64,000 nt of DNA, from contig CAWBCJ010000001.1 in NCBI GenBank assembly GCA_963787255.1, positions 19,540 through 83,539 on the forward strand, written 5' to 3'. The stretch comes from Methanobacteriota archaeon (GTDB lineage: Archaea > Methanobacteriota > Methanobacteria > Methanobacteriales > Methanobacteriaceae). The notes under the pieces were generated by a model. The model was not told the DNA's origin and did no database searches. It worked only from the letters and a program-made list of their open reading frames with translations. This document shows positions 1 through 12,527 of the stretch, piece by piece. A program made the translations under genes and the position numbers. Position 1 is the stretch's first letter; the number at the start of each line of letters is the position of its first letter.

Positions 1-1
1 A

Positions 2-1442
2 TCAGTTTATTTTTCCATCAGGACCAATGGTAACCAGAGGGTCTAAACTGGATTCAATCAAACTACGGTTATAAATACTTGCCAGTTTTAAAGCTTCTTC
101 AGCTTTTTTACGCTCAGTTATGTCACGTGCAGCGGCAAAAACTCCGATAACTCTACCAGATTCATCTTGATAGACTGAAGCATTATATAATACAGGTGTA
201 ACATGTCCATCTTTATGTTTAATCTCTAAAGGATAATCAATCACCTTACCCTCTTTGAAAACTTGAATATAACCTTTTTTAGCCTTTTCAGGCTCAGTGA
301 AGTAACCTGAAAAATTAGTTCCGATAAGTTCATCCCTGCTGAAACCAGTGACCATTTCCGTAGCTGTATTTACATCTGTAATCCTTCCATCGGGACCAAT
401 GGTAACCAGAGGGTCTAAACTGGATTCAATCAAACTACGATTATAAGCATTCGCTAATTTAAGTTCATGTACGTTCCTGAACTTGTTCTTCAAGATTATC
501 ATGAGCATTATAGAGCTTCTTCAGGCTTTTTACGTTCAGTTAAATCATGTGCATATACAGTAGCACCAATCACTTTCCCATTTGAATCTTTAATAGAAGT
601 ATGAAATATTGAAAAATAACGACGATTCTTGAGGATTATCACCCGCAATTGATTCCATATGCACCATTTCCCCGTTGAATGCCTTATCAAAGTTTGCTTT
701 GGCATTTTCACGGTCTTTAACGTTTGTGTGATAATCAAGTATATTTGCACCTATTTCAATATCAGCATTATAGAGATTTTTCATTACTTTGGCATGTTGC
801 GAGTTGAAGCTTGTATATCGATAATTACAATCAACAGAAAATATAGGTCCTTCTGCGCTTCCATTACAAATTAAGTATATTATGCTTCTGTAAAAGTTCT
901 TCCTCAGCTTTTTTACGCTCAGTAATATCGGTTATAGTTATGCGGTATTTTTCATCAACCTTATCATATATTGGCATAATTTGCATTTGAACATAAAATA
1001 GTGATTTTTTCCCTTTTTTTAACTGTAGTTCAACTTCTTGAATTTCATGGTTAACCATTGCATCTTTAATAGAACGATAATATTTAGTCTGGTAATTTGA
1101 AGGTATGAATAGGATGAAACCAAACCCAATAATCCTGTCTTTTTCTAATCCAAGCAATTCTGCCCCTTTAGTGTTCACATTTCTTACATTTCCCTTATTA
1201 TCCAATGAAAAGTATCCTACAGGCGCTTCATTGTACATTTCATGGTATTCATCGTAAAGCTTTGATAATTCCTCTTGAGTCTCCCTTAGTTCTTCATTCT
1301 GCATCTCAAGCTCTGTTTGGTGAACCTGAAGCTCATGCACCAACTCAGCAGTACTTTCAGGGATATTGCCTTTTACTTTGGCATTTTGTATCTCTTTTTC
1401 TGCACGCTCACGCAATGAACCAGTTTTTTTATTTAACCCCAT
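2..1442 (-). pseudogene. Multi-PAS-domain sensor protein split over several reading frames; runs off the left edge of the window
   Basis: ORFs 864-1442, 590-784, 508-750 and 2-508 all translate to PAS S-box modules ending in the linker D(I/L)TERKK(A/P)EE(A/E)L. By hand translation, the PAS sequence continues across ORF boundaries only after frame changes near ~870-900, ~630, ~505 and ~470. The module NRSLIESSLDPLVTIGPDG occurs twice in ORF 2-508. Confidence 0.7.
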
Positions 1443-1703
1443 CTTCAGACTCCTAAATGTGCTAATTATAACTTAATCTTTGAATAATCATTTGGTTCCC
1501 ATAACCTATTCTTTATCATAAAAAAAGGATACCCATGTGATTGATTGAATATTTCCCTGAATTCATCCCCTTATTGGGGTTTAAGAGTCCTTTATGCTTT
1601 TTTTATTGGTTCTGTCCATTTAAAAAACACCTTGAAACTTATATAATTTAATTATAATTATATTTTATGATTTAATTTTTCACAAATATTATTAAAAAAA
1701 ATA

Positions 1704-1875
1704 TTTTACTTTTCAGATGCTCTTGCATTAAACCCATTAAATACAGCACTTACCGGTGTTAAAAATGAACATGACAGATGCAAGAGTACGCAAATGTAAG
1801 AATGTATCGATTTTAATTGATAATAAGATGCAAGAACGCAGAATCGAACACGACAAATGTACATTTTTATGCTAG
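1704..1875 (+). repeat. Copy A of a dispersed non-coding repeat (other copies 20181-20295, 21127-21295, 42233-42412)
   Basis: By-eye alignment with 42233-42412 shows long identical runs (ttcagatgctcttgca, ccggtgttaaaaatgaacatgacagatgcaag, attttaattgataa, gaacacga). A 5-nt indel (acttaccgg vs acttagattaccgg) means it is not codon-constrained. It lies 5' of the minus-strand sensor gene that starts at 1442. Confidence 0.7.
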
Positions 1876-2051
1876 ATAAAAATACTTCTATAATACGAGA
1901 GGGGTTAAATAAAAAAAATTAAAATTCAAAATTTTAGAACTGTATTAATCCTCTTCTTCAAACTCGATTTTTATGCGGATATCGTCACAGATAGGTTTAC
2001 ATAACCTTTCCTGCAATAATAATCATATTATAATTGTAGGAGATATTTAAA

Positions 2052-2909
2052 ATGGAAGTTATACTTCAACAGTTTGCTAATCTCAGTGTTTTAATATATA
2101 TTGTTACCACTATGCTGTCTATGGGTCTTAATTTTTTCCCTAAACAATTTTTAGAACCTTTAAAGGATAAGAGTCTCATATTAAAGTCTTTAGCTGCAAA
2201 TTTCATATTATTGCCCATCATAACCTATATTATACTGCAAGTGATTCCCCTAGAGCAGGGTCTTGCCATTGGCTTAGTTTTAATGGCTGCAGGGGCAGGA
2301 TCCCCCTTCATGCTGAAATTGGTTCAATTTATGAAAGCAGATATGGCATTTGCAGTGGGGCTGATGTTAATATTATCCATAGTGACCTTATTTTATATGC
2401 CATTAGTACTTTCTATTTTGTTACCCGGTGTTTCGGTAAATCCCCTGTCTATTGCAGTTTCCCTATTGGTCTTGATATTTTTACCCTTGATCATTGGAAC
2501 TGCTGTAAAGTCAAGGTATAGTGAAATAGCTAAAACTATTCAACCCACTTTTAACCAGATATCTAATATATTCATCTTCGTAGTGATATTTCTATATCTG
2601 GGTCTTAACTACCAGGACTTTCTGGCAGTATTCGGTACAGGAGCATTGATAGCTTCTTTAATATTTGTATTATCAGCTTTCTTAATAGGCTACTTACTAG
2701 GAGGCCCTTCCAAAAATACAAAATCAGTGCTAGGTATGGGGACTGCTATAAGAAACTCATCTGCCGCATTTGTGGTAGCAGTTACCAACTTTAGCTCAGA
2801 ATACGACGTCATGGCCATGATAATCGTAGTTTATATGCTCAGCATAATTACAATGATGATCATTTCAGGTGAGATGGGTAAAAGATCCAAAGGTTCAGAA
2901 ACACTATAA
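2052..2909 (+). CDS. Polytopic membrane transporter, bile acid:Na+ symporter (SBF/BASS)-like
   Basis: 285-aa ORF with about ten hydrophobic segments and AGGAG-like SD upstream. The family call is from overall resemblance by recall only. Confidence 0.55.
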   Translation: MEVILQQFANLSVLIYIVTTMLSMGLNFFPKQFLEPLKDKSLILKSLAANFILLPIITYIILQVIPLEQGLAIGLVLMAAGAGSPFMLKLVQFMKADMAFAVGLMLILSIVTLFYMPLVLSILLPGVSVNPLSIAVSLLVLIFLPLIIGTAVKSRYSEIAKTIQPTFNQISNIFIFVVIFLYLGLNYQDFLAVFGTGALIASLIFVLSAFLIGYLLGGPSKNTKSVLGMGTAIRNSSAAFVVAVTNFSSEYDVMAMIIVVYMLSIITMMIISGEMGKRSKGSETL

Positions 2910-2928
2910 AAATACAGGCACCGCACTT

Positions 2929-3753
2929 TTATAATTTACCAAATCTAGTATTAGAACTTCTAATACTAGCAGAATCCACAGCTTCCCATCTCCCACTGTT
3001 AACAAACTCTAACCTACCTTCAATTACTAATTTATCAATGATTTCCTTAGTTTCCCATTCTCCTTCATTATTATTTGGAAGCTTTGCAATTTTGCGAACT
3101 TGATCCAAAGAAACTGCTTGACCTACATTCAACTTACGGTAAACAATAGCTGCTTTATCTTCACTCATTTTAAATGAAGTCAGTCCTCTAATTTGGATAC
3201 GTTTCTCATAAAGTTCTTTTAAATCATCAGGAATATTCACAAAATTGTACCGATTCACTTTCCATAAATTAGTACCACAAATATTTTCAACTCTACCTGT
3301 TTCTCTTAACCGTTTACTCCAATGTTCTCTCCAAGCATATTTACTATCATTACCCGTAATTCTTTTGACCAATCTTTTTAGATAATCGGTGTTTACTTTA
3401 TCCTTAAAATATATGGGTCCTTTATCAAATTCATCAAAAAATTCATTTTCAGCCATAGTCCTTTTTTCATAAGCAACAGTGGTGGTTAATTCCTCACGTA
3501 TAGAACCTTCAGGTGGAAGTTTCAGTGGAATATCTCCATTATAATTTTGTGCCGTTTTATCTGCATCTACCAAATATCCGTGATTTAATAAGTTTTCTAA
3601 TGCCTCTTCTAAACTTATTCTGGTAGAGCGCCATGATTGACCATGATAAAAATAAACTGCTCTTGCAAATCTTCTCCACAAATCAGCATTTACAGCAGGA
3701 GGCCTGACCCTTTTCATAAGATCACCCATATAATTGCATTTGAACCTTTGCAT
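2929..3753 (-). CDS. Hypothetical protein (orphan); the N-terminus may be ribbon-helix-helix-like
   Basis: Long ORF (274 aa) with normal amino-acid composition. The N-terminal KRVRPPAVNADLWRRFARAV...SLEEALENLL loosely fits a strand-helix-helix pattern. No recognisable catalytic motif. The real start is probably one of the internal Met codons (MGDLMKRV). Confidence 0.45.
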   Translation of the reverse strand: MQRFKCNYMGDLMKRVRPPAVNADLWRRFARAVYFYHGQSWRSTRISLEEALENLLNHGYLVDADKTAQNYNGDIPLKLPPEGSIREELTTTVAYEKRTMAENEFFDEFDKGPIYFKDKVNTDYLKRLVKRITGNDSKYAWREHWSKRLRETGRVENICGTNLWKVNRYNFVNIPDDLKELYEKRIQIRGLTSFKMSEDKAAIVYRKLNVGQAVSLDQVRKIAKLPNNNEGEWETKEIIDKLVIEGRLEFVNSGRWEAVDSASIRSSNTRFGKL

Positions 3754-4059
3754 ATTTTCTTGAAAACGGGTCCTGTTTTTAAAAAAAAGACCTGTTTTCC
3801 GATATAATATTCATTTATATTATTATATTTATAAAAAAATAATAATATAATAATACCTAAAACATGTTCATCTTTCCTAATCTCAAAAAAAAGAGGATAA
3901 AAACATCTAAAAAAGGTTCTAAAATGTAATAATAACTTTTTTAAGGAAAATAGACTTTTAATATGTTTATTAATGTTGATTTTTTTAATATTTTCTATAT
4001 TTCTTTTTATTTTTGTGGTGTTTTTACCACCACCTTTGCAGGTTTCTATATTAGTGTTT

Positions 4060-4088
4060 TTCATGAGTGGTTGCCGCCCCCATTATAT
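4060..4088. repeat. Left copy of a 29-bp perfect direct repeat (ttcatgagtggttgccgcccccattatat)
   Basis: Identical 29-mer at 4831-4859. The flanking bases differ on both sides. GC-rich core in an AT-rich region. On the minus strand it reads ATATAATGGGGGCGGCAACCACTCATGAA, a TATA-like box about 20 nt before an ATG. Confidence 0.9.
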
Positions 4089-4092
4089 TATA

Positions 4093-4479
4093 TCAATTTT
4101 TTTTATTGTAGTGAATACCATAAACCTTAAATTTCTTTGAATATTTACGTTTTCCCAGCAAACGATCCGATTGATTTAATATGTGCCCTAATTTACGCCC
4201 TTTATTATCTAATGATAAAAAGAAAGGAGCATTCACAATTAAATCATTACTATGAATAAATTGCATTAATTCACGCGTTATAAAATCTTCCCCGTTCATT
4301 TCATTTTCTATATAATATAATGCAAGTTTTATGACATCCTTTTCGTATTTTAACTTCTTATTCCAAGCCTCTTTCGTGTTATCACGTCCCCTATTCCATT
4401 TTTTTAAGTAATATCCAAAATTATAACCCCACATAAACAACTCCATTTTTAAAGCTTTAAACTCTAAAAATAAAACCAT
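4093..4479 (-). CDS. Hypothetical protein (orphan), lying between the two 29-bp repeats
   Basis: 128-aa ORF; the likely start is MELFMWGYNFGYY. Basic, with no recognisable motif. Confidence 0.4.
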   Translation of the reverse strand: MVLFLEFKALKMELFMWGYNFGYYLKKWNRGRDNTKEAWNKKLKYEKDVIKLALYYIENEMNGEDFITRELMQFIHSNDLIVNAPFFLSLDNKGRKLGHILNQSDRLLGKRKYSKKFKVYGIHYNKKN

Positions 4480-4712
4480 TCTTCAGGTAACATTCCTTTA
4501 ACTTGATTTTGTGCTTTAATTGCACTTTTTGTGTTAATTTTAATCTCTGCAGCATGACCCCATTCATCGTATCTAATTGAATCTTGCACAGATTCTTCAG
4601 TAGGCAGTTTATAAAATTTTTTACTGCTTAAATTACAAAACAAAAAATTAATGAAACTATTTTTTAAAAATAAACGAATCCAATTATTCTTAAAATGATT
4701 CACTCGAAACTC

Positions 4713-4789
4713 TCGAAATCTTCGATTTCGAAGCGCGAAACATAGTTTCGCTGGCTTCGTTTCGATGCATCGAAAATCAAAGATTTTCG
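4713..4789. repeat. Array of four short hairpins/palindromes built on TCGAAA(A)TC half-sites
   Basis: Four elements: TCGAAATC-ttc-GATTTCGA (4713-4731); GCGAAAC-ata-GTTTCGC (4735-4751); the perfect 16-nt palindrome TTTCGATGCATCGAAA (4760-4775); and CGAAAATC-aaa-GATTTTCG (4771-4789). The last overlaps the previous palindrome. The array lies inside track ORF 4464-4835, whose translation looks non-protein-like. Confidence 0.8.
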
Positions 4790-4830
4790 CATAATTAGGG
4801 AAGGGAAGAATTAATCCTCCCTTAAATTGA

Positions 4831-4859
4831 TTCATGAGTGGTTGCCGCCCCCATTATAT
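4831..4859. repeat. Right copy of the 29-bp perfect direct repeat
   Basis: Identical to 4060-4088, offset 771 bp. Confidence 0.9.
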
Positions 4860-4935
4860 ATTTTCCCAAAACTTCTAATTTTATGTCTCGAACTAAGCTA
4901 AATTCTTTTTTTTTAGTTTGTGACCATGAACTATA

Positions 4936-5094
4936 TTATTTTATAATTTTGTGTTTTTCATTTTCACACCATGCACTAATCGCTTCTACCGCACCCTTTG
5001 AGAGTTTACCTTGTTTATCTCCATATTTTTCCCGGGTTAAAAGTCTGAATGTTTCTTCCAGGTCATCAGGTAAGTTAAATGTTATTGCTGCCAT
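4936..5094 (-). CDS. Ribbon-helix-helix (CopG/Arc/MetJ-like) small DNA-binding protein, 52 aa (below the ORF-track cut-off)
   Basis: Hand translation gives MAAITFNLPDDLEETFRLLTREKYGDKQGKLSKGAVEAISAWCENEKHKIIK. This matches the classic RHH strand (ITFNLPDDL) followed by two helices. GGAG lies about 8 nt upstream of the ATG. The overlapping plus-strand track ORF 4838-5116 looks spurious. Confidence 0.6.
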   Translation of the reverse strand: MAAITFNLPDDLEETFRLLTREKYGDKQGKLSKGAVEAISAWCENEKHKIIK

Positions 5095-5281
5095 GCATAA
5101 TTTCTCCACTAAATAGTCTATGTTCTTATTATATACTCATATTCATAGAGAGCATGTGAAAAGTAATAATTTTATGAATTCATAAATCATAAAAAAGTCA
5201 ATTATGATTAAAATTACATTTCAAAAGTGGAGACTTGTCATTTATATTAAAGATATGAAAATTAAAAGATTATATAAAGAG

Positions 5282-5935
5282 TTAAAGTTTATTTAAGGCA
5301 ATTTTAGCAGCATTTTGCTCTGCTTCTTTTTTACTTCCACCACTACCAATCCCACAACTTTCACCATTAATCATCACCGCCATGGTGAAGGTCTTATTAT
5401 GCGGCATTCCCTCTTCTTTAACTAACTCATAATTTACATCAAGACAGTCCTGATCACATAATTGTTTTAATTCAGACTTATAATCATAAAAAAAGACATC
5501 CTCATTTTCTATATGGGGTATAACAGTTTTAAAAATAAATTCCTTGACAATATGCAAGCCTTGATCCAGATATAATGCCCCAATAAAAGATTCAAACACA
5601 TCACTAATAATTGAATCAATTTCCCTTCGGGTTAATTCTAAACCTGCACCTAATTTTATATATTGATCTAATCCTAATTCCATTGAATAAACATAAAGTG
5701 CCTTTTTACACACATAATTAGAACGCATACGGGTTAACTGCCCTTCAGTTAACCCTGAATCTAGGTTATATAAAAATTCAGATACCACCAGATCCAGGAC
5801 TGCATCGCCTAAAAATTCTAATCTCTCATAACATTTATTGAGGTCATTTTCATTGGAATAAGACTCATGAATAAAAGCCAGCTCATAAAGATGCGCATTA
5901 ACTGGTTCAATTGAAAATTTTTTAAGTAATTGCAT
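5282..5935 (-). CDS. rnc: Ribonuclease III, bacterial class 1 type (catalytic domain + dsRBD)
   Basis: RNase III signature [14 protein letters not shown] second acidic cluster follows ([15 protein letters not shown]). C-terminal dsRBD-like [10 protein letters not shown]...[18 protein letters not shown]. 217 aa. Confidence 0.85.
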
Positions 5936-6069
5936 AATACTTCTATTTTATTATCCTGCATATTTATAGAATTTTAAATATTATACTGAAAAAGTATTGA
6001 ACTAAACTTTACTTCTATTAAACCGCAATATAAGGCATCAAACAAAAAAAAAAACACTTCCACAAATTT

Positions 6070-6175
6070 AAGAGGCGTATTGACCGTTATGGTGGTCGTA
6101 TTTGGGTGTAATCAGAATATGGAAAGGGTTCTACCTTTTTATTTCACTATAACTGTTAATGAATTAAAAAAATAA
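6070..6175 (+). pseudogene. 3' relic of a histidine-kinase gene (last ~30 codons of the HATPase domain)
   Basis: Read over three frames: RYGGRIWV / SEYGKGSTF / FYFTITVNELKK. This matches the kinase C-termini at 19444-19520 and 39908-40000 (HGG.IWVES..G.GSTFYFTIP). No upstream kinase sequence remains. Confidence 0.5.
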
Positions 6176-6327
6176 AGAACTCATTAGTGTCGATGGAAAA
6201 AAAATATTACTCATTAACATCTAAAGATGAAAAAGAACTAAAAAGAAGCATACGAATATTTCTGCAACATTTTTCTATGATAGTTGAAGAAATGCTAAAA
6301 TTCTGCAAATAATGTTAAAAAAATAAT

Positions 6328-6699
6328 TTAAAACCCAGTTATCAAACTTTTTTTAATATATTCTATTAAAGGCATTGCATTACCATCTAAATTCAGTTTA
6401 TAATACTTATCCTTAGAACGATTGTAAGACTCTACTATCTCCTGTTTTTTAAGTATACCCAGATTATATGAAATCAGATTTTGTTTTTCTTTTAATACCA
6501 TTACTAATTCACAAACGCAGTAATCTCTTCTAAAAAGTAACATTATTATTTGCAACCTTATAGGATTGCTTAGAATTTTAAGTAATTCTGCTATTTCGTT
6601 AATATTAGCATTTTTTAAAGAATCTAAGTCCTTTTGAAGTTCTGTTTCCCAAATTATTTTCATATCCGGATCAATTGGGCAGCAACGATCGTTTTTCAT
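6328..6699 (-). CDS. ArsR/SmtB-family transcriptional regulator
   Basis: HTH core LSNPIRLQIIMLL...DYCVCELVMVL...ISYNLGILKK, with a CVC metal-site motif at the start of the HTH. Confidence 0.8.
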   Translation of the reverse strand: MKNDRCCPIDPDMKIIWETELQKDLDSLKNANINEIAELLKILSNPIRLQIIMLLFRRDYCVCELVMVLKEKQNLISYNLGILKKQEIVESYNRSKDKYYKLNLDGNAMPLIEYIKKSLITGF

Positions 6700-6822
6700 A
6701 AGAAAAGTTCTGTTGTTTTTATTATAAATATTTTGGATTTATAAATTCTGTTAATAAATAATCATTTTTCATTTATTTTAAGACGGAATCGCGATATTAT
6801 TCCATATAACCAATTATATTTG

Positions 6823-6832
6823 AATTCGAATT
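6823..6832. promoter_or_regulatory. 10-bp perfect palindrome AATTCGAATT in the divergent promoter region; candidate operator
   Basis: Lies between the ArsR-family gene (minus) and 6927-7244 (plus). The same palindrome and its flanks are repeated at 8139-8148. Confidence 0.3.
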
Positions 6833-6926
6833 TTTTTGAAATGAGACTTTTCTATTTAAGTCATTCCCCAACACACTTTCTATTATACAATGAAATATTG
6901 TAATAAAAAAGGAGGAATGAAAAAAA

Positions 6927-7244
6927 ATGGAAAATAACCAAAAAAATGCTTTGGCATACCTTTCAGGAGGTTTAGGTCTTGTAATCTTGTTAGGAGGTGT
7001 ATTTAACCTATATCCTGTCTTATACGGTTTGTTAGGTGCGTTAATTTTAGGCGTTACATCTGGCGCAATAAAAAAATCTTGGACATCAATTTTAGGCACC
7101 ATAGGACTTATAATCCTACTTTCAGGAATATTAGGCATTTACACATTTGTGTATGGACTATTAGGCGCGATTTTGATATGGGTGATAGCAGGATCCCTCA
7201 AAAAGTATCGTGGAGAAAATAACTTGGGAAACACACCCAACTAA
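6927..7244 (+). CDS. Small integral membrane protein (4 predicted TM helices)
   Basis: 105-aa glycine/leucine-rich hydrophobic ORF with a strong SD (AAGGAGGAATGA) upstream. Confidence 0.5.
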   Translation: MENNQKNALAYLSGGLGLVILLGGVFNLYPVLYGLLGALILGVTSGAIKKSWTSILGTIGLIILLSGILGIYTFVYGLLGAILIWVIAGSLKKYRGENNLGNTPN

Positions 7245-7339
7245 TTTATTTATTTTTAGTAAAATGGAAAATCAGACAGGTTCTAAAAATGAAAAAAACT
7301 ACTACTTGATTTATCTAAAAAAAAGGAGTATGTAAGAAT

Positions 7340-7831
7340 ATGCAAAAAATGGCTATAGCCCTGATTTTGATTATTCTCGGTTTAATAGTGATAGCTTTCC
7401 CCCTTTTAGGATTAATCCCGATTGCCGTCCTTTCTGGATTCTTAGTCCTTATGTTAGGTATTGGTCTTATATTAACTGGAATATTTAAAATGGGCGAAAA
7501 TGATGCGCCTGTGGGGATCCTCATGCTTATATTGGGAATTATTGCCCTGATTTTAGGAATTGTATTCATAGTTAACCCCGCACTATTCACTTGGATAGTT
7601 GGTTTTTTAGTCTGGATAATGGGTCTATTCCTAATAATCGAAGGTATTGCCAGAATTCTTTCAAGGACTAGGGACATATGTGGAGTTAAAAACATCATCC
7701 TAGGTATACTAATCCTATTCGTAGGACTATTCTTAGCTACCTATACATGGCTTTTAGTAGTTTTAATCGGCCTATGGCTGTTATCTACTGGCATAAGAAT
7801 GATTTATCTTAGAATGAAAAACAGAATTTAA
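7340..7831 (+). CDS. HdeD/DUF308-like membrane protein
   Basis: 163 aa with six evenly spaced hydrophobic helices and repeated G..L...G motifs typical of DUF308. Family call by recall. Confidence 0.55.
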   Translation: MQKMAIALILIILGLIVIAFPLLGLIPIAVLSGFLVLMLGIGLILTGIFKMGENDAPVGILMLILGIIALILGIVFIVNPALFTWIVGFLVWIMGLFLIIEGIARILSRTRDICGVKNIILGILILFVGLFLATYTWLLVVLIGLWLLSTGIRMIYLRMKNRI

Positions 7832-7889
7832 TCTCCTACAACAGGGAAATAATAAAAGAACCATCTTAATAATCGTGAAGTATATGCTT

Positions 7890-8015
7890 CGAATTTTTAG
7901 TCCACTGGCAATTTCTATTAACATTCGTATTTTTAAGAAAATCTGATTCCTTTTTGAAGATCACTTTCCCAAGCCATTTTTCAGGTTCAATATGTCAACA
8001 ACGATTCTTTTTCAA
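7890..8015 (-). pseudogene. Truncated, frameshifted relic of an ArsR-family gene (duplicate of the 5' end of 6328-6699)
   Basis: The minus strand reads TTG AAA AAG AAT CGT TGT TGA..., parallel to MKNDRCC of the intact copy. W-E-S-D-L-Q-K appears in a shifted frame, matching WETELQK. The homology stops about 40 codons in. Confidence 0.5.
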
Positions 8016-8138
8016 AAAAAAGCTTTGTCCTTTTTTTATAAATATTTTGGGTTTAAAAATCAGCTCAATCTAATTTTTATTATTTAATTTCAGGGACAAA
8101 TTAGCCATTATTCGGATTCATACAAGTGATTATAACTG

Positions 8139-8148
8139 AATTCGAATT
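8139..8148. promoter_or_regulatory. Second copy of the AATTCGAATT palindrome
   Basis: Part of the ~350-bp imperfect duplication of 6590-6941 at 7900-8251. Confidence 0.3.
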
Positions 8149-8236
8149 TTTTTGAAATAGACCTTTCCTTTATAAGTCATTCAAAATCGCACTTAATATA
8201 CAAGAGAGTACTTAACAAAAGGAGGAATGAAAAAAA

Positions 8237-9035
8237 ATGGAAAATGATATCAATTCAAATGATACTGGTTCGGTGGCCAAGTGCGTCATTTTTGATTTTT
8301 TCGCTAATCATCTTGGTTCGACCGTTATACATCCTGGAGGACTTAAAGCAACCAGAAAGTTAGAAGATTCTTTAGAAATTGGCAGCAGTACCAAAGTTTT
8401 AGATATCGCATGCGGAAAAGGTTCAACTGCCTTTTATCTGGCAGAAAAATATGGTTGCCAAGTTGTAGGTATAGACGTATCAGAAGAATTAATTCAAGAA
8501 GCAAATGAATTATGTAAAAAGAAAGGGTTGAATAATCAGGTTAAATTTCAAGTAGGCAATGCAATGGACTTACCTTTTGATGATAACCAATTTGACGTGG
8601 CAATTTCACAGGGAATCCTGGTGTTTTTGTAGACGATAAACAAAAACCATAAATGAAGCCTCCAGAGTAATTAAAAATGGGGGAAAAGCCGGTTGGGTTG
8701 AGCTTAGCTGGAAAAAAGAGCCGAATAAAGATTTTTTAGATAAGGTTTTTAATGTACTTCGTGCATATTGCCTAACAAATGCCAGTACTTATGAAGGATG
8801 GAAAAAGGTTTTTGAAAGGGCTAATATTCATAATTTAGTTGTAATAAAAGGCGAAACCATAACCAGCAATTTCTTTGATTCTCTAAAAGATGAAGGAATT
8901 GTAAACACAATAAAAATAATGTTTAACTCTATGAAAAACAGCGAAATAAGGAATAGGCTTAAAATAATGGGTAAATTTGTTAAAGATAACCATGATTATT
9001 TTGGTTATGGAGTATATGTGCTTGAAAAACCATAA
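8237..9035 (+). pseudogene. Class I SAM-dependent methyltransferase (Methyltransf_11-like) with two frame changes
   Basis: Motif I is VLDIACGKGSTAF, followed by DLPFDDNQFDVAISQGILVF. The sequence continues as VDDKQK and then INEASRVIKNGGKAGWVELSW...GYGVYVLEKP only after frame changes in a T-run (~8622) and an A-run (~8645). Confidence 0.7.
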
Positions 9036-9063
9036 TTTATTATTATCTAATTGAGGTGATTCT

Positions 9064-9654
9064 ATGGTAAAAGCAAAAATTTTATTCGTAAGCGTCCGCA
9101 ATGCTTCCAGGACACAGATGGCAGAAGGTTTCTGTAAAGCTTTCTATGGGGATGAAATCGATGTTTACAGTGCTGGAAGCAATCCACAAGAAATTGACCC
9201 TACAACAATACATGTCATGGATGAGGTAGGAATAGACATTTCCAAACAAACATCAAAGACTTTGCTGGACTTGAAAGACCTTGAAATTGATTATGTTATC
9301 ATGATATGTGGAAATGAATATAATGTCTGCCCAATTTTTGTTGGAGGCATGAAATACTTCAAAAAACCACTCAAGGATATATACCCATTCAAAGGAACAG
9401 AAGCAGGAAAAATTGAGCTTTTAAGAGAAATAAGGGACGAAATAGGTGATTGGGTACAGGACTTTCACTATTATATGAATGGTGAAGCTAAAATATTAAC
9501 AGTTTCAGATTGCTGTGAGTTATTAGGCGCTGATGATGGCTGCTGTGATTTAGAAGGTGTTGGTGGCGGTAGCTGTTGTGATATAGGTGAAACTGATAGT
9601 GAATGCTGTAGTTTTGATTCATCTGATTCTACTCGAAATAAAGACTCTTCTTAA
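9064..9654 (+). CDS. LMW-PTPase-type ArsC paralogue with Ser in place of the nucleophilic Cys and a C-terminal tail carrying four CC pairs
   Basis: The P-loop reads FVSVRNASRTQMAEG (S-X5-R) versus C-X5-R in the neighbouring arsC. It retains CGNEYNVCP. The tail is SDCCELLGADDGCCDLEGVGGGSCCDIGETDSECCSFD. SD GAGGTGAT lies upstream. Confidence 0.75.
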   Translation: MVKAKILFVSVRNASRTQMAEGFCKAFYGDEIDVYSAGSNPQEIDPTTIHVMDEVGIDISKQTSKTLLDLKDLEIDYVIMICGNEYNVCPIFVGGMKYFKKPLKDIYPFKGTEAGKIELLREIRDEIGDWVQDFHYYMNGEAKILTVSDCCELLGADDGCCDLEGVGGGSCCDIGETDSECCSFDSSDSTRNKDSS

Positions 9655-9707
9655 TTTAAAATATTAGGTTTTTTATCGTTAAGCATATAAGCAACTTCTA
9701 CTATTAT

Positions 9708-9739
9708 ATCTATATATCAATATATGTCGATATATAGAT
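9708..9739. promoter_or_regulatory. 11-bp inverted repeat ATCTATATATC-N10-GATATATAGAT upstream of arsR; candidate ArsR operator overlapping a TATA-like sequence
   Basis: Perfect 11/11 arms read directly from the sequence, 64 bp upstream of the arsR start. Confidence 0.45.
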
Positions 9740-9802
9740 TTAACAAAATTAAAAATATAATCTACAAATTAATAGTAGGAAATTTATGGTAGAGGAAGTT
9801 TT

Positions 9803-10159
9803 ATGAAAACTTGTGAAATTTCAGGCGAAGGTAGGCCTAATGAAAATCAAATAAAAAGAATGAAAAAACTTATGGAATCATTACCTAATGATAATCAATT
9901 TGAGGGATATGCAGGTGAACTTAAAGCTTTATCTGATGCTACTCGACTTAAAATCTTATATTTATTATCAGATGGAGAATTATGTGTCTGTGAGATAATA
10001 TGCGCGTTAGATAAGCCACAATCAAGTATATCTCATCATTTAAATATTTTAAAAAATTTGGGTTATATTAAAGGACGTAAAGATGGTGTGTGGATTCATT
10101 ACAGCCTTACAGACCCAAAAATTGCAGAATTGGTTAAAGAATTAATAGAAGTACTCTAA
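9803..10159 (+). CDS. arsR: Arsenic-responsive repressor ArsR
   Basis: Has the canonical ELCVCEI As(III) site followed by the HTH ([22 protein letters not shown]). Immediately precedes arsC. Confidence 0.85.
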
Positions 10160-10173
10160 TTATGGTGATTTTA

Positions 10174-10674
10174 ATGGCAAAAGAAAGAGTTTTATTTATG
10201 TGTATCCATAATGCAGCCAGATCTCAAATGGCAGAAGGCCTATTCAGGCATTTATATAATGATAATTTTGATGTTTACAGTGCTGGAAGCGATCCTCAGG
10301 CAGTCGACCCTTTAGCAATAAAATGTATGGAAGAAATTGGAATTGATATCTCTAATCATAGATCTAAAAGTTTAAAGGAATTTGAGGGCCAGGTATTTGA
10401 TTATGTTATAACTGTTTGTGGAAATCCATATAGTGCATGTCCTTTCTTTGCCGGGGGTAAAAAATACTTCAAACAACCTTTCGAAGATCCCTCAGCGTTT
10501 GACGGGACAGAAGAAGAAAAATTGGAATTATTTAAAAAAATAAGGGATGAATTAAAAGATTGGATAGAAGATTTATACTATTCATATATGATACCCAAAG
10601 ACGGATGCTGCAATTTAGAAGATATTGAAAGATGCGGTTGCGGGCCAATTGATAAAGAATTCTCATGTAAATAA
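10174..10674 (+). CDS. arsC: Arsenate reductase, thioredoxin-coupled LMW-PTPase type, with a short Cys-rich tail
   Basis: Contains FMCIHNAARSQMAEG (C-X5-R), VCGNPYSACP and FEDPS. The tail is KDGCCNLEDIERCGCGPIDKEFSCK. SD GGTGAT lies before the ATG at 10174 (the track ORF starts at 10162). Confidence 0.85.
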   Translation: MAKERVLFMCIHNAARSQMAEGLFRHLYNDNFDVYSAGSDPQAVDPLAIKCMEEIGIDISNHRSKSLKEFEGQVFDYVITVCGNPYSACPFFAGGKKYFKQPFEDPSAFDGTEEEKLELFKKIRDELKDWIEDLYYSYMIPKDGCCNLEDIERCGCGPIDKEFSCK

Positions 10675-10688
10675 TTGGAGTTGAAAAT

Positions 10689-11344
10689 ATGTTAAACGTT
10701 GCAATAGCTACAGACGGACCATACGGTGAAAGAGCATTTGAAAATATTAAAAAAGAATTCAATACAGAATTTGTTGAACTGGAACAACCTACATCAATGT
10801 TCATGGATGAAATAGACATCCCTGAAGATGCATTAACAAAAATAAAACAAGCAAATATCTTAATAACCTATACACAACACCCTGATCTTACATTAGACCT
10901 TGTGGACATGGTTAACAAGGATGTAGATTACATAATTGTCGCTGCATGGAGAGGAGAAGGATTTAAAAACCAATTAGAAAGATACGAAAACGTAACTTGC
11001 CCATATATCATGTGCGAATTAGAAGAAAACGGCAATGAAGTATTCGATGAATTTACATCTAAAATTGGGAAGCCCAAAGTAGATATAAAACTTGAAGATG
11101 GTCAAATCGTTGATATTAATGTTATTAGGTCTTCTCCTTGCGGTTCAACATCATTTGTAGCAGATTACATATCAGATAAATATTCAAACAGTCTGATTTA
11201 GAAAATGTCCCTACTGAAGCAGGCCTTAAATTACAACATTATCCTTGCAGGGCTGCTAAAATGAGACTATTTTCAGATGAAGAGTGTAAAAAAGAAATGG
11301 CATCAGGTTTTCATAGAGATGCATTCGAAGAAGCTCTCAAATAG
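10689..11344 (+). pseudogene. Conserved archaeal protein (possibly DUF166 family) with one frame change near 11190
   Basis: The 170-aa ORF ends ...DKYSNSLI*. The next frame continues [47 protein letters not shown]. Family assignment is uncertain. Confidence 0.45.
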
Positions 11345-11368
11345 TAGTAAAATGAAGTTTTTTGAGGA

Positions 11369-11386
11369 TCGAAATCTACGATTTCA
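11369..11386. repeat. Solitary copy of the GAAATC-N3-GATTTC hairpin motif
   Basis: The sequence is tcGAAATCtacGATTTCa in the 10689-11344 / acr3 intergenic region. Its flank (ttgaggatcgaaatcta) resembles the copy at 17493. Confidence 0.6.
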
Positions 11387-11411
11387 AATGCGTTAAAATA
11401 GAGGGAAAATT

Positions 11412-12527
11412 ATGGGTAAGAGCATACGGATCAAGTTACAAGTCAACTTTGCGGAGTTACACGTCTTAGTTTTCTTGATAGATATTTAACTCTTTGGATT
11501 TTCCTTGCAATGGCTATTGGAGTTTCAATAGGTTATTTTATTCCGGAGTAGAATCATTTATCGGCATGTTTTCAGTTGGAACAACAAGCATACCAATAGC
11601 CATTGGATTAATCTTAATGATGTATCCTCCACTTGCAAAGGTAAAATACGAAGAATTAGGAGATGTATTTAAAAACAAGAAAATTTTAGGGTTAGCTATT
11701 TTCCAAAACTGGGTTATAGCGACCTATTTTAATGTTTATATTAGCAGTAGTCTTCTTAAGTGGATTCCCAGAATTCCTTGACTGGTTTAATCCTAATCGG
11801 AATAGCTCCATGTATTGCAATGGTAATAGTTGGAATGAACTTGCCAAGGAAATACCGAATATGCAGCAGGCCTTGTAGCATTTAACAGCGTATTTCAAGT
11901 ACTATTTTACAGTGTTTATGCATATATCTTCATTACAGTGCTTCCACCTCTACTTGGATTACAGGGAAGCGTTGTAAATTTCAGTATAACCCAAATAGCT
12001 CAGGTGTGTTTATTTATCTTGGAATTCCATTTTTAGCAGGAATTACAAGATTTGTCTTAATAAAATATAAAGGCAAAAATGGTATGAAACTAAATTTATT
12101 CCTAAAATTAGCCCCATTACACTGATAGCGCTACTATTCACCATTGTGGTAATGTTCAGTTTAAAGGGGAACTTTATAATTCAAATACCCCTGGATGTAG
12201 TTCGTATTGCAATTCCACTGCTCATTTACTTCTTGATAATGTTTTTCATAACATTTTACTTAGGTTACAGATGGAGCGGATTACTCTAAAACAACTACAA
12301 TATCTTTTACAGCCGCAAGTAACAATTTTGAGCTTGCAATAGCTGTTGCAGTGGCAGTTTTTGGAATAGGATCTGGAGTTGCATTTGCTACAGTAATCGG
12401 GCCTTTAATAGAAGTCCCTGTGCTTATTGGTTTAGTTAATGTGGCCCTATTATTCCAAAGGAAATATTTTAAGGATAGAACAATTTATAAAACTTATAAA
12501 ATGGAGGAAGAATCATATGGAAGATAA
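11412..12527 (+). pseudogene. acr3: Arsenite efflux permease ACR3, heavily disrupted (about nine frame changes)
   Basis: Stitched by hand over all three frames: [28 protein letters not shown] / [38 protein letters not shown]... / [19 protein letters not shown] / TGLILIGIAPCIAMVIV / WNELAK / [20 protein letters not shown]... / [24 protein letters not shown] / [20 protein letters not shown]... / [31 protein letters not shown]...[16 protein letters not shown]. Confidence 0.85.

Follow-up and report, generated by a model that had tools for sequence, protein, structure and literature searches.

The window analysed here, a 64,000-nucleotide stretch of DNA from a Methanobacteriota archaeon, carries on its minus strand a block of genes and repeats that an initial annotation had taken for the possible remnant of an integrated plasmid or virus, and the question is from which kind of element such a block derives and what its repeats may do. 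The components named there were all found, that is, a 52-aa ORF, two exact copies of a 29-bp repeat, a cluster of hairpins and two ORFs of 128 aa (4479-4093) and 274 aa (3753-2929), both of which were borne out; the order on the minus strand is a ribbon-helix-helix (RHH)-like gene, a motif copy, a host repeat, the 128-aa ORF (p128), a second motif copy, an ORF of 116 aa (ORF116) and the 274-aa ORF (p274). The block has no integrase, Rep or transposase, as had been stated, and the 52-aa, 128-aa and 274-aa proteins are indeed orphans, with no matches in Pfam, PHROGs, NCBIfam or PADLOC. We consider it probable (roughly 0.6) that the block is the integrase-proximal early/regulatory module of a decayed, rearranged provirus, with the regulatory mechanism proposed below and an unrelated host repeat.

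When other genomes were searched for the block, homologues of the RHH-like protein, p128 and p274 were found in the same order in the early region of a provirus in another Methanobacterium genome (G017), where they adjoin the integrase and are collinear with the block of the window. This tailed provirus is about 35 kb long, apparently intact, and encodes an integrase, a DNA methylase, a prohead protease, an HK97-like capsid protein and a 1456-aa tape measure (Pfam matches: Phage_integrase, N6_N4 methylase, Peptidase_S78 and Linocin_M18/HK97-like capsid). In the G007 genome a p274 homologue lies 1.4 kb from an integrase, and all homologues with genomic context reside within tailed proviruses or beside integrases. 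The genome of the window (G000) is a 2.47-Mb MAG whose bin includes co-binned strain variants (contigs C2 and C3), so that long-range linkage along its window-bearing contig (C1) has a single assembly as its basis. On this contig, 10-18 kb to the left of the block and left of the window, lies the decayed rest of the same provirus, consisting of a TFIIB-zinc-ribbon gene, two membrane proteins, a split ParB-methylase, TerS, a split TerL and portal fragments. The viral hallmarks at C1:6-12.4 kb, linked to the block by this one MAG contig, are collinear with G017 and include a split Terminase_3 recognized by Pfam; about 10 kb of host-type PAS sensor-kinase genes and a transporter gene separate them from the block. 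Because the TerL, TerS, ParB-methylase and TFIIB-zinc-ribbon remains share the contig, the remnant is larger than the initial annotation held. No integrase was detected in the window or in C1:1-25 kb and no att repeats were found, on which grounds the provirus is called a remnant, and rnc occupies the position that the integrase has in G017 and in the viral contig L043. A comparison of the block with a phage collection and IMG/VR returned no record matches, and among RNA runs none was found to contain the stretch. In several environmental strains, the RHH-like protein, the p128 C-terminus and p274 still evolve under purifying selection.

The same layout is displayed by MSTV1 of Methanobrevibacter smithii, in which small RHH or wHTH regulators come after the integrase and precede replication genes, a methyltransferase, TerS, TerL, the protease, the HK97-type capsid protein and the tape measure, and in which a wHTH protein was proposed as lysogeny repressor (PMC11375127). 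The copy in the window differs in that it is interrupted and has neither integrase nor structural genes. Gene content and order support an origin from a tailed (Caudoviricetes-type) provirus, a virus rather than a plasmid; the mobile origin, the remnant state and the viral alternative of the first proposal are retained and the plasmid is given up.

The 52-aa protein (4936-5094, minus strand) is preceded by the Shine-Dalgarno (SD) sequence GGAGA 8 nt upstream, and in complete relatives its gene opens the series of early genes downstream of the integrase region. Its homologues share 70-96% identity, with a dN/dS of 0.09 in the comparison with L046; further homologues occur in G000 at the near-identical ends of contigs C20, C21 and C29 and at C29:889 kb, and the copies on C2 and C3 are probably strain variants. 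A beta-strand (AITFNLP), a helix, a GKLSKG turn and a second helix form a DNA-binding-type, RHH-like pattern, and the alignment of nine homologues displays the invariant positions A-I-T...P-D-x-L-E..F-R..T-R and G-x-L-S/T-x-G-A-x-E-A. At the level of pattern the protein thus has the traits of an RHH protein (about 45-55 aa, a strand of alternating hydrophobic residues, a helix, a G-x-S/T turn and a helix), whereas the best Pfam match of the family, RHH_5, is non-significant (E = 0.078, in two of the nine homologues), sequence comparison with the PDB gave no matches and alignment to CopG with hhalign placed the strand and helix 1 in register with a non-significant probability of 1.7%. The ORF at 5094-4936 stands, with its SD, and the RHH fold itself is plausible on the strength of the pattern, with no significant match.

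Upstream of the RHH promoter, three TTATGA/TCATAA half-sites are clustered at 5171-5192 (minus strand), the cluster including a 16-bp perfect palindrome, TTTATGAATTCATAAA. The promoter region contains a conserved box, ATTACTTTTCACATGCTCTC (5148-5167, minus strand), which can be aligned in the window, C2, L046, G017 and L043, and downstream of it the TATA-like TATATAAT (5135-5128, minus strand); positions 4982-5178 match G017 at 72.6% (blastn). The half-site cluster is also kept upstream of the RHH-like gene in G017 and L043, which makes three viruses in all, and these two have the same TTATGA half-sites yet different GC-rich motifs. The cluster is a candidate auto-operator, to which the RHH-like protein may bind. 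F55 of SSV1, which maintains lysogeny, and SvtR of SIRV1 resemble the 52-aa protein in being encoded by archaeal viruses, in size (~6 kDa), in their beta-strand/helix/helix pattern and as candidates for repressing, at short repeated sites close to the TATA box or transcription start, both their own promoter and those of early genes (PMC5569661). They differ in that no sequence similarity is detectable, the candidate operator TTATGA is unlike theirs and the hosts are methanogens instead of Sulfolobales.

The "hairpin array" downstream of the RHH-like gene was found, and found to be foldable, at 4703-4790, where it constitutes one copy of a structured palindromic repeat of about 90 nt that is distributed over the genus. 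It is composed of a hairpin H1 (4789-4771), an outer helix pairing 4764-4759 with 4710-4705 and two inner hairpins (4751-4735 and 4731-4713), and folds better than shuffled sequences (z = -4.4). Matches occur in 22 of the 23 genomes of the genus, with 1-12 detectable copies per genome, and the other copies in G000 (on C3, two on C18 and on C10) lie at non-viral loci. In an alignment of 20 copies from 11 genomes, compensatory (double) changes were observed in 19 of 29 pairs, and 84.8% of the cells can pair, against 24-58% in slid controls; the covariation score of 0.316 compares with 0.154 +/- 0.014 in shuffled alignments, and none of 500 shuffles reached the observed value. Screening of positions 1-12000 of the window against Rfam (cmscan, E <= 1) gave no matches. 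Bacterial REP/BIME palindromes are likewise dispersed, intergenic and composite, vary in the number of hairpins per site and keep their stems by compensatory changes, but the repeat described here has few copies and a three-way-junction architecture. Judged from its distribution, the array is a host repeat with no relation to the virus and has either inserted into this intergenic region or been inherited with it; it represents a structured, hitherto undescribed repeat family spanning the genus and is not the virus or plasmid operator array that had been suggested.

The earlier proposal that the RHH protein acts on this array, as in plasmid copy-control or partition, is not supported. It is true that 150 bp separate the small RHH-like protein from a dense cluster of palindromes, as could be expected if the block were the remnant of an integrated plasmid in which the RHH protein bound the array for copy control or, as a centromere, for partition. 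However, besides the genus-wide distribution of the palindromes, C2 and L046, which are close variants, are without a 45-nt part, half of the array, nothing of the kind follows the RHH-like gene in the viruses of G017 and L043, and the contexts of the homologues are those of tailed proviruses or integrases, with no ParA, Rep or relaxase anywhere nearby. A plasmid copy-control or partition locus is therefore largely refuted and very improbable.

Of p128 (4093-4479, minus strand), only about the last 68-90 residues, which start near 4360-4299 and end at 4093, are conserved in frame, with a dN/dS of 0.14-0.36 over the last 68 codons and 37.5% identity to a 116-aa protein of G017 across residues 39-126. 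The N-terminal part carries indels of lengths other than multiples of three in relatives, in which the protein is called as 69 aa, and the N-terminal extension is doubtful. The ORF 4464-4835 was correctly regarded as non-coding, since its frame is disrupted in close relatives by indels of 1, 2, 5 and 13 nt and all codon positions are substituted evenly.

By contrast, the supposed non-coding AT-rich spacer at 3714-4064 (minus strand) contains ORF116, an open, weakly constrained frame rich in Lys, Ile, Asn and Phe with a hydrophobic centre. Exactly one frame is open at seven loci (the window, L041, L042, L045/46, L048, G017 and G007), with a single indel of 9 nt and no frameshifts, and neutral simulations with 41, 55 and 120 substitutions left the frame open in 3, 1 and 0% of the trials, respectively. 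This preservation, well beyond that of the neutral simulations, indicates that ORF116 is probably translated, although a dN/dS of 0.8-1.8, at low dS, is that of a sequence free of amino-acid constraint. Its stop codon overlaps the start of p274 in an ATGA at 3717-3714. The likely start of p274 is this ATG at 3717, preceded by GGGTGATC, giving a protein of 262 aa (2929-3717, minus strand). At its N-terminus lies a two-helix segment that is RHH-like, and AlphaFold2 predicts two winged-helix domains further on (approximately residues 100-190 and 200-260 in the 274-aa numbering), both with a pLDDT of 80-89. Homologues share 63% identity in G017 and 37% in G007, dN/dS is 0.20, and the sequences of the relatives part ways immediately after the p274 stop. 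The family is patchy: within the genus it occurs in 3 of 23 genomes, within the whole order in 10 of 301, and it consists of 13 clusters among 1.8 billion representative proteins.

Iteron-plasmid initiators (RepA/RepE/Pi) have a tandem winged-helix architecture, and p274 has been considered in this light, with ORF116 and p274 forming a replication module in which the AT-rich 350 bp upstream would serve as origin and the open frame would be secondary. Apart from the integrase, the AT-rich stretch with p274 is all that the G017 provirus has in common with the G007 element, to which it is otherwise unrelated. With 78% AT, the stretch contains inverted repeats at 3762-3799 and 3815-3850, and the similar, reduced rates at all three of its codon positions suggest constraint at the nucleotide level. 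Nevertheless, Foldseek retrieved generic tandem winged-helix proteins (MAGE/Nse, cullin, JetB/MukE, Stn1), all with E > 1e-3 and none of them a Rep protein among the top 50, no iteron-like tandem repeats were found, frame preservation at seven loci is unexpected of an origin, and related viruses have other replication genes, such as PCNA in L043, all of which makes a replication module unlikely. As to the more specific assignment of p274 to the Rep_3/RepA iteron initiators, it was rejected, there being no Rep match in Pfam or Foldseek and no tandem iterons, and the tandem winged-helix architecture being the one shared trait.

The two exact 29-bp repeats, at 4831-4859 (copy a') and 4060-4088 (copy c'), are the sole full copies in the genome. 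On the minus strand copy a' reads as an A/T-rich ATATAAT, a 15-nt core (GGGGGCGGCAACCAC, 4852-4838), TC and ATGAA; it is syntenic with copy a of G017, downstream of the RHH-like gene, and its ATG opens a frame without conservation in relatives. A hairpin, AAGGGAGGATTAATTCTTCCCTT (4801-4823, minus strand), follows 8 nt after it, and hairpins likewise follow the post-RHH motif copy at 15-20 nt in G017 (GAGAATCC-TACG-GGATTCTC) and L043 (GAGATCC-TGCG-GGATCTC). The ATG of copy c' (4064-4062) is the start codon of ORF116, and its G017 counterpart, copy c, abuts the ATG of the homologous ORF; the core of c' is kept in L041 and L042, the latter having lost the upstream ATG of a putative mini-ORF. Two further copies, d' and e' (GAGGGCGGCAACCAC; C1:12332 and C1:12210), match copies d and e of G017, with which they share the downstream TTAGATCCCCA. 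The TFIIB-like gene is preceded by two motif copies in both viruses, at syntenic positions. Among the 23 genomes of the genus the motif is confined to G000 and G017, and a third virus, L043, has seven copies of a motif of its own, GAGGGACCAA. Copies are identical within one virus, differ from virus to virus, and lie always on the gene strand and in the early region only. In 8 of 16 copies an ATG follows after 0-3 nt, and the other half has no adjacent start. The 5' end is an SD-like G-run, with a predicted pairing to the 3' tail of 16S rRNA of -11 to -18 kcal/mol.

On these features, the core most resembles, as a virus-specific signal of one orientation, the start-associated sequences (SAS) or the stoperators of mycobacteriophages. 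The SAS of Cluster K phages, 13 nt long and present in about 10-19 copies, whose function is likewise without assignment, shares with the motif (15 nt) its short and asymmetric form, an SD core with conserved bases that cannot pair with 16S rRNA, a single orientation a few nucleotides before start codons, mostly ATG, and confinement to the non-structural half of the genome with no copies in the host chromosome (PMC3203893). Unlike SAS, the motif occurs in an archaeal host, in 4-7 copies, with a start codon after only half of them and no inverted-repeat extension (ESAS), and varies between related viruses, whereas the SAS core is constant across Cluster K (PMC3203893). The stoperators of Cluster A are, as the motif, asymmetric sites of 13-15 bp in promoters and short intergenic gaps, in an orientation tied to transcription (PMC9283540). 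In both cases each immunity group has a sequence of its own, which implies that it co-evolves with a multi-domain DNA binder encoded by the phage; the Cluster A repressor is a two-domain monomer (PMC9283540), and the RHH-like segment and two winged helices of p274 would suit an asymmetric site. The differences are far fewer sites, restricted to the early region, non-homologous proteins and a motif known here from its sequence (PMC9283540). The uniformity of copies within a virus and their divergence between viruses is indirect evidence for an operator or stoperator role.

Either DNA or RNA could be the level at which the motif acts. If the core and its A/T-rich 5' flank were a DNA element, either a core promoter of leaderless early transcripts, in which TATA and GC core would lead up to a transcription start at the ATG and which would double as operator, or a repressor site of stoperator type, with translation uninvolved, it would be understood why the 29-bp identity covers exactly the TATA-like ATATAAT, the core and the ATG, why copy a' has the same TATATAAT as the TATA-like box of the RHH promoter, why the ATG comes ~22-24 nt after the TATA-like box and why orientation follows transcription, as in Cluster A (PMC9283540); the uniform copies that diverge between viruses would also fit operators co-evolving with a repressor. 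However, one L043 copy lies within the 14 nt that separate two genes of like orientation and has no A/T-rich box ahead of it, which favours a role in RNA or translation, and copy b of G017 must be transcribed, because a 42-aa HTH-like ORF can start only at a TTG inside the motif. The ATG is missing right after half of the copies, and in a region of 78% AT nearly any upstream stretch appears TATA-like, so that this reading is regarded as tentative and rather unlikely.

It may also be asked whether the repeats encode short leader peptides (window: MGAATTHE(S/K)(I/H); G017: MEATTT...) whose translation would regulate the gene that follows, through termination-reinitiation or attenuation. Both copies of the window encode ORFs of 10 aa differing only past residue 8, the ORF is kept in L041 with its stop changed from TAA to TAG, TTG replaces ATG in variant C2, and all five G017 copies start with TTG or ATG, several with a G-run 7-8 nt upstream and copy c with a TGA overlapping the next ATG. 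Against this, the start is absent in L042 (AAG), d' (AAG) and e' (TAG) while the core nucleotides are unchanged, past the core the peptides have neither length (6, 10, 19, 21, 42 aa and longer) nor sequence in common and the 5' end of the L043 motif has no start codon; we regard such peptides as quite improbable.

The preferred reading is that of a virus-specific start-associated signal. The virus-specific divergence of the non-SD part of the motif favours a virus-encoded reader over the invariant 16S tail. It is proposed that the small RHH-like protein autoregulates through the TTATGA half-sites of its own promoter and that the 15-nt GC-rich core acts as an orientation-dependent signal, 0-3 nt before the start codons of early genes, which a virus-encoded factor would read in the DNA or the mRNA leader, switching these genes jointly. 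The best candidate for this reader would be the multi-domain DNA binder p274, and the translation of ORF116 may mainly bring ribosomes to the overlapping p274 start. A bolder version, to which we give little credence, holds that the motif is a promoter or initiation signal read by the TFIIB-like zinc-ribbon protein of the provirus; if true, a private paralogue of a general transcription factor would steer the host RNA polymerase to early and middle viral genes. In a weaker version, the system may be the first archaeal counterpart of the mycobacteriophage SAS/stoperator regulons, with p274 as reader.

To our knowledge, almost nothing is known about regulation in temperate tailed viruses of archaea. 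For methanogen viruses, one transcriptome-based hypothesis has been put forward, that of MSTV1 (PMC11375127). The locus of the window and its G017 relative provide a small, testable regulon formed by an RHH-like protein with its half-sites, a rare RHH-plus-double-winged-helix family and a virus-specific motif. The motif has syntenic positions between viruses and a sequence that has changed in concert, which is the signature of immunity-specificity evolution, a pattern that, as far as we know, has been documented mainly in mycobacteriophages. The maintenance of this remnant by selection suggests that methanogens retain viral control modules, possibly for immunity, and retention of the module described here may provide repressor-type immunity against related viruses.

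The block lies on the minus strand beside the RNase III gene rnc (5935-5282), from which it is separated by a promoter region of 190 bp. It contains, in this order, a ribbon-helix-helix (RHH)-like ORF of 52 aa (5094-4936), a first copy of a 29-bp element (4859-4831), a hairpin of 23 nt (4823-4801), a dense palindrome cluster (the hairpin array, 4790-4703), about 220 nt of AT-rich sequence, the p128 ORF (4479-4093), a second, identical copy of the 29-bp element (4088-4060), ORF116 (4064-3714) and the p274 ORF (start at 3753 or 3717, end at 2929). The two 29-bp repeats reported in the initial annotation are exact, and no other full copy occurs in the 2.47-Mb assembly. Scans against Pfam, PHROGs, NCBIfam and PADLOC gave nothing usable for RHH, p128, ORF116 and p274, and the first 12 kb of the window had no match in Rfam. 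A search of RNA sequencing runs found none that contains the stretch.

The suggestion that the block is the remnant of a mobile element was borne out by a gene order shared with the early region of a provirus in another Methanobacterium genome (G017, JAEYPF010000010.1) and by decayed viral genes on the same contig; this homology and synteny, together with the viral genes, favor a provirus over the plasmid that had been considered as well. Judged by its gene content, the G017 locus is a tailed provirus of ~35 kb with housekeeping genes on both flanks. It starts with an integrase, an opposite-strand 562-aa gene, a RHH homolog (70% identical) and an opposite-strand small gene, followed by a Zn-finger protein, a 246-aa protein, a SWIM protein and small ORFs, then by homologs of p128 (37%) and p274 (63%) with an ORF116-like frame between them, and a 93-aa gene. 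After these come a TFIIB-zinc-ribbon protein, two membrane proteins, a ParB-N/N6_N4 methylase, a TerS-like protein, terminase, portal, a Peptidase_S78 protease, an HK97-like capsid protein, a 1456-aa tape measure and tail fibers. In a second genome (G007) a p274 homolog (37% identical) is located 1.4 kb from a tyrosine integrase and, here too, follows an AT-rich frame that is open over a long distance and a small gene of RHH-like type. No GC-rich motif of the kind centered in the 29-bp repeat was found near this homolog. A GC-rich island of ~80 nt (gccctaatagtggggtttatggttgatgttggcgcatcaaccggtcataag...; L007 10190-10270, minus strand), located in the interval from the integrase to the RHH-like gene of this element, is a possible att core or small RNA. 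The third relative, a Logan metagenomic contig of 48.7 kb (L043), begins with an integrase fragment, a RHH homolog (76%) and an opposite-strand small gene, after which a long series of small genes including PCNA follows. Where the opposite-strand small gene and the early genes diverge, the intervening region carries TGTACA-type tandem and inverted repeats in this contig (1560-1720) and CACAAACT tandem repeats in G017 (L006 12500-12640), both of which look like lysogeny-switch operators; the window lacks a counterpart.

The p274 family is patchily distributed, with homologs in only 2 of the 22 other genomes of the genus. Within the order it was found in 10 of 301 genomes, and HMMER detected only 13 clusters among 1.84 billion representative proteins. 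No tblastn match to p274 was obtained among 50,697 phage records, and a scan of IMG/VR found no relative.

The decayed remainder of the provirus was located on the same contig (C1), left of the window, within C1:1-12400 (L039). When the G017 provirus frames were compared with this genome (tblastn), matches were obtained at C1:6.0-10.5 kb for TerL (split in two pieces; Terminase_3), a TerS-like protein, the ParB-methylase (also in two pieces) and a membrane protein. Portal fragments, a scaffold-like gene and the gene for a 340-aa TFIIB-zinc-ribbon protein (C1:11172-12194) accompany them; the whole set is encoded on the minus strand and is collinear with G017. Core copies with one mismatch (GAGGGCGGCAACCAC) were found at C1:12332 and C1:12210, directly upstream of the TFB-like gene, and the G017 TFB-like gene has two core copies upstream, 147 bp apart; in both pairs, TTAGATCCCCA comes after the first copy. 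This shared arrangement indicates that the two halves on C1 descend from one provirus. The zinc ribbon protein that directly follows the paired copies in both proviruses (L006 6316-7008 in G017; Pfam Zn_Ribbon_TF, below cut-off) may be a viral transcription-factor paralog.

The viral remainder is separated from p274 by about 10 kb of PAS sensor-kinase genes, of which some are fragments, together with the SBF transporter gene. The PAS genes and fragments (window 2-1442; C1:12617-19494) have near-identical segments in common, e.g., ASIYNRSLIESSLDPLVTIGPDGKI; they sit between the two provirus halves, and similar fragments, inserted at 2.8-5.3 kb of C1, break up the structural module. These genes and fragments may have driven the rearrangements. 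In the closest environmental relatives, L041, L042, and L045-L048 (82-95% identical), the similarity to the window stops exactly at the p274 stop codon and is followed by a 133-aa gene that the window lacks, indicating that 2929-2931 is a rearrangement breakpoint. No integrase is left in the block, as initially annotated; its position is occupied by rnc. A second, better-preserved provirus fragment (C17:1-14843, L040; integrase fragment, SWIM, methylase, TerS, TerL) contains no copy of the GC-rich motif. Altogether, the block is the regulatory module of a defective provirus, an ordinary kind of object whose origin is now well documented.

The assembly is a MAG in which contigs C2 (13.6 kb) and C3 (21.3 kb) are collinear with C1:24-45 kb at 80-98% identity; the identity is mosaic, and the start of each contig falls within the block. 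Both, like their copies of RHH, probably represent variants from co-binned strains, and copy counts in this MAG therefore need care. More RHH homologs were detected on C20/C21/C29 and at C29:889 kb, one of them adjoining a homolog of a G017 early gene. The window's rnc is the only intact RNase III gene of the assembly: the copy at the ancestral locus (C18:84591-85233), where a YkgJ-like gene is the neighbor just as in G005 and G002, contains stop codons and is a pseudogene, and the variants at C2:836-1484 and C3:323-966 are also broken. The gene adjoins RHH in the window, C2, C3, and L046, extra rnc fragments occur in G002 and G009, and a tree built to ask whether the window's copy is foreign gave no resolved placement. 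The segment C26:122-132 kb, very GC-rich in an otherwise AT-rich genome, is probably mis-binned bacterial sequence.

Codon-level tests were performed with the environmental contigs L041, L042, and L045-L048 and the variant contig C2. For RHH, p274 and the C-terminal 68 codons of p128, substitutions were biased to third codon positions and indels were multiples of 3 throughout, except for one 2-nt gap run in the alignment of RHH to C2. The dN/dS values were 0.09 for RHH, 0.14-0.36 for these p128 codons and 0.20 for p274, and all three are under purifying selection in spite of the decay of the structural genes. The frame of the 35-60 N-terminal codons of p128 is not kept, and its relatives are called as 69 aa. 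The region 4464-4835 is indeed non-coding, as was proposed: its indels are of 1, 2, 5, and 13 nt, relatives carry stops in it, and substitutions are spread evenly over codon positions.

A different result was obtained for 3714-4064, which had been described as an AT-rich, non-coding spacer. We also first read ORF116 as non-coding (no codon periodicity in a distant alignment) and reversed this reading after frame-openness and indel tests on close relatives. Exactly one frame is open over this stretch in the window, L041, L042, L045/46, L048, G017 (104+ codons) and G007 (155 codons), the other frames reaching at most 32 codons; among close relatives the sole indel is of 9 nt, and in neutral substitution simulations the frame remained open in 3, 1, and 0% of cases at 41, 55, and 120 substitutions. 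The dN/dS of ORF116 was nevertheless 0.8-1.8, with a dS below that of its neighbors. The ORF116 TGA overlaps the p274 ATG (ATGA, 3717-3714), which is preceded by GGGTGATC. In our reading ORF116 would be translated into a little-constrained peptide and would feed ribosomes to p274. An alternative is that it encodes a fast-evolving small protein.

Concerning the proteins, the 52-aa product has the sequence pattern of RHH proteins, as proposed, and lacks a significant match; PDB sequence searches with the RHH and p274 profiles likewise returned nothing significant. AlphaFold prediction of p274 reached a pLDDT of 50 with a 6-sequence alignment, and the AlphaFold2 run with 11 sequences was usable for two winged-helix domains only (residues ~100-190 and ~200-260, pLDDT 80-89). 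As for the RHH-like N-terminus suggested earlier, a helix pair predicted at lower confidence is compatible with RHH. Foldseek with p274 retrieved generic tandem winged-helix proteins only, plus one weak viral match annotated as RHH.

The proposal that RHH acts on the adjacent hairpin array found no support. Array matches occur in 22 of the 23 genomes of the genus, full-length copies being 75-84% identical, and further copies in this genome (nhmmer; C3:5596-5697, C18:81285-81372 and 83588-83675, C10:40548-40654) sit at non-viral intergenic sites. Based on this distribution the array is a host repeat, which leaves the plasmid-type idea of RHH on a centromere or operator array unsupported. Its structure was tested on an alignment of 20 copies from 11 genomes, the repeat being found also at L049-L066. 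RNAalifold on the raw alignment recovered only one hairpin, and the structure was specified by hand as one 5' hairpin plus a three-way junction of ~90 nt, in which 84.8% of cells are paired (24-58% in slid controls) and 19 of 29 pairs show compensatory changes; none of 500 shuffles reached the observed value. The array had no match in Rfam. Its unit number varies between strains, a 45-nt unit being absent from C2 and L046, and in this genome copies differ in how they are oriented with respect to the neighboring genes. A comparison of the C3 element with C1 for a clean insertion showed intergenic regions that are simply divergent.

Upstream of RHH, three otherwise different viruses have in common a half-site cluster, a 20-bp box and a TATA-like box. 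In the window the cluster (5192-5171, minus strand) consists of three TTATGA/TCATAA half-sites including a 16-bp perfect palindrome, and the conserved box lies at 5167-5148 (minus strand). Since RHH is conserved across the viruses (70-76%) whereas the GC-rich core differs between them, the cluster of half-sites would be the likelier target of RHH. The candidate RHH autocontrol is modeled on F55 and SvtR (PMC5569661).

The invariant part of the 29-bp repeat is a 15-nt GC-rich core, which reads G(G/A)GGGCGGCAACCAC in this genome. The G017 core (GGAGGCGACCACCAC) is present in five copies on the gene strand of the early region, with none in the structural half, and the L043 core (GAGGGACCAA) in seven copies within 11 kb, every one on the gene strand. 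Copies are the same within each virus and different between viruses, and their positions are syntenic in the window's provirus and G017 (one following RHH, one preceding ORF116 and two preceding the TFB-like gene). Syntenic positions combined with a virus-specific sequence point to a virus-specific factor as the putative reader of the core. The 5' end of the core resembles a Shine-Dalgarno sequence, with predicted pairing to the host 16S 3' tail of -18 kcal/mol in G017, about -11 in this genome and -12.6 in L043, and an ATG follows 0-3 nt after 8 of 16 copies, including the starts of ORF116, its G017 homolog, the TFB-like gene of this genome and two called L043 genes; one ATG-adjacent L043 copy occupies an intergenic gap of 14 nt. 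A mini-ORF reading (MGAATTHE.., MEATTT..) was rejected, as L042 and the copies at C1:12332 (d') and C1:12210 (e') have lost the start codon but kept the core unaltered. In G017 copy b a TTG within the motif is the sole possible start of a 42-aa HTH-like ORF (L006 10142-10014, minus strand, MEATTTLTKKEVNELPELKAIDDLLHWAKTGELPVKGEGT), which looks like an excisionase/HTH_17-type protein. The core is best compared with two kinds of mycobacteriophage element: the Start-Associated Sequences (SAS) found in Cluster K (PMC3203893), and the Cluster A stoperators, whose reader is a monomeric repressor with two domains (PMC9283540). The core may act at the DNA level or at the RNA level.

An undescribed family of structured repeats, distributed across the genus, emerged as a by-product of this analysis. 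Within the provirus itself, three features are noteworthy: the family of p274, rare proteins that, as modeled, join RHH to a double winged helix; a putative coupling ORF that is preserved in frame yet unconstrained; and the motif of an archaeal virus that is virus-specific and resembles SAS or stoperators.
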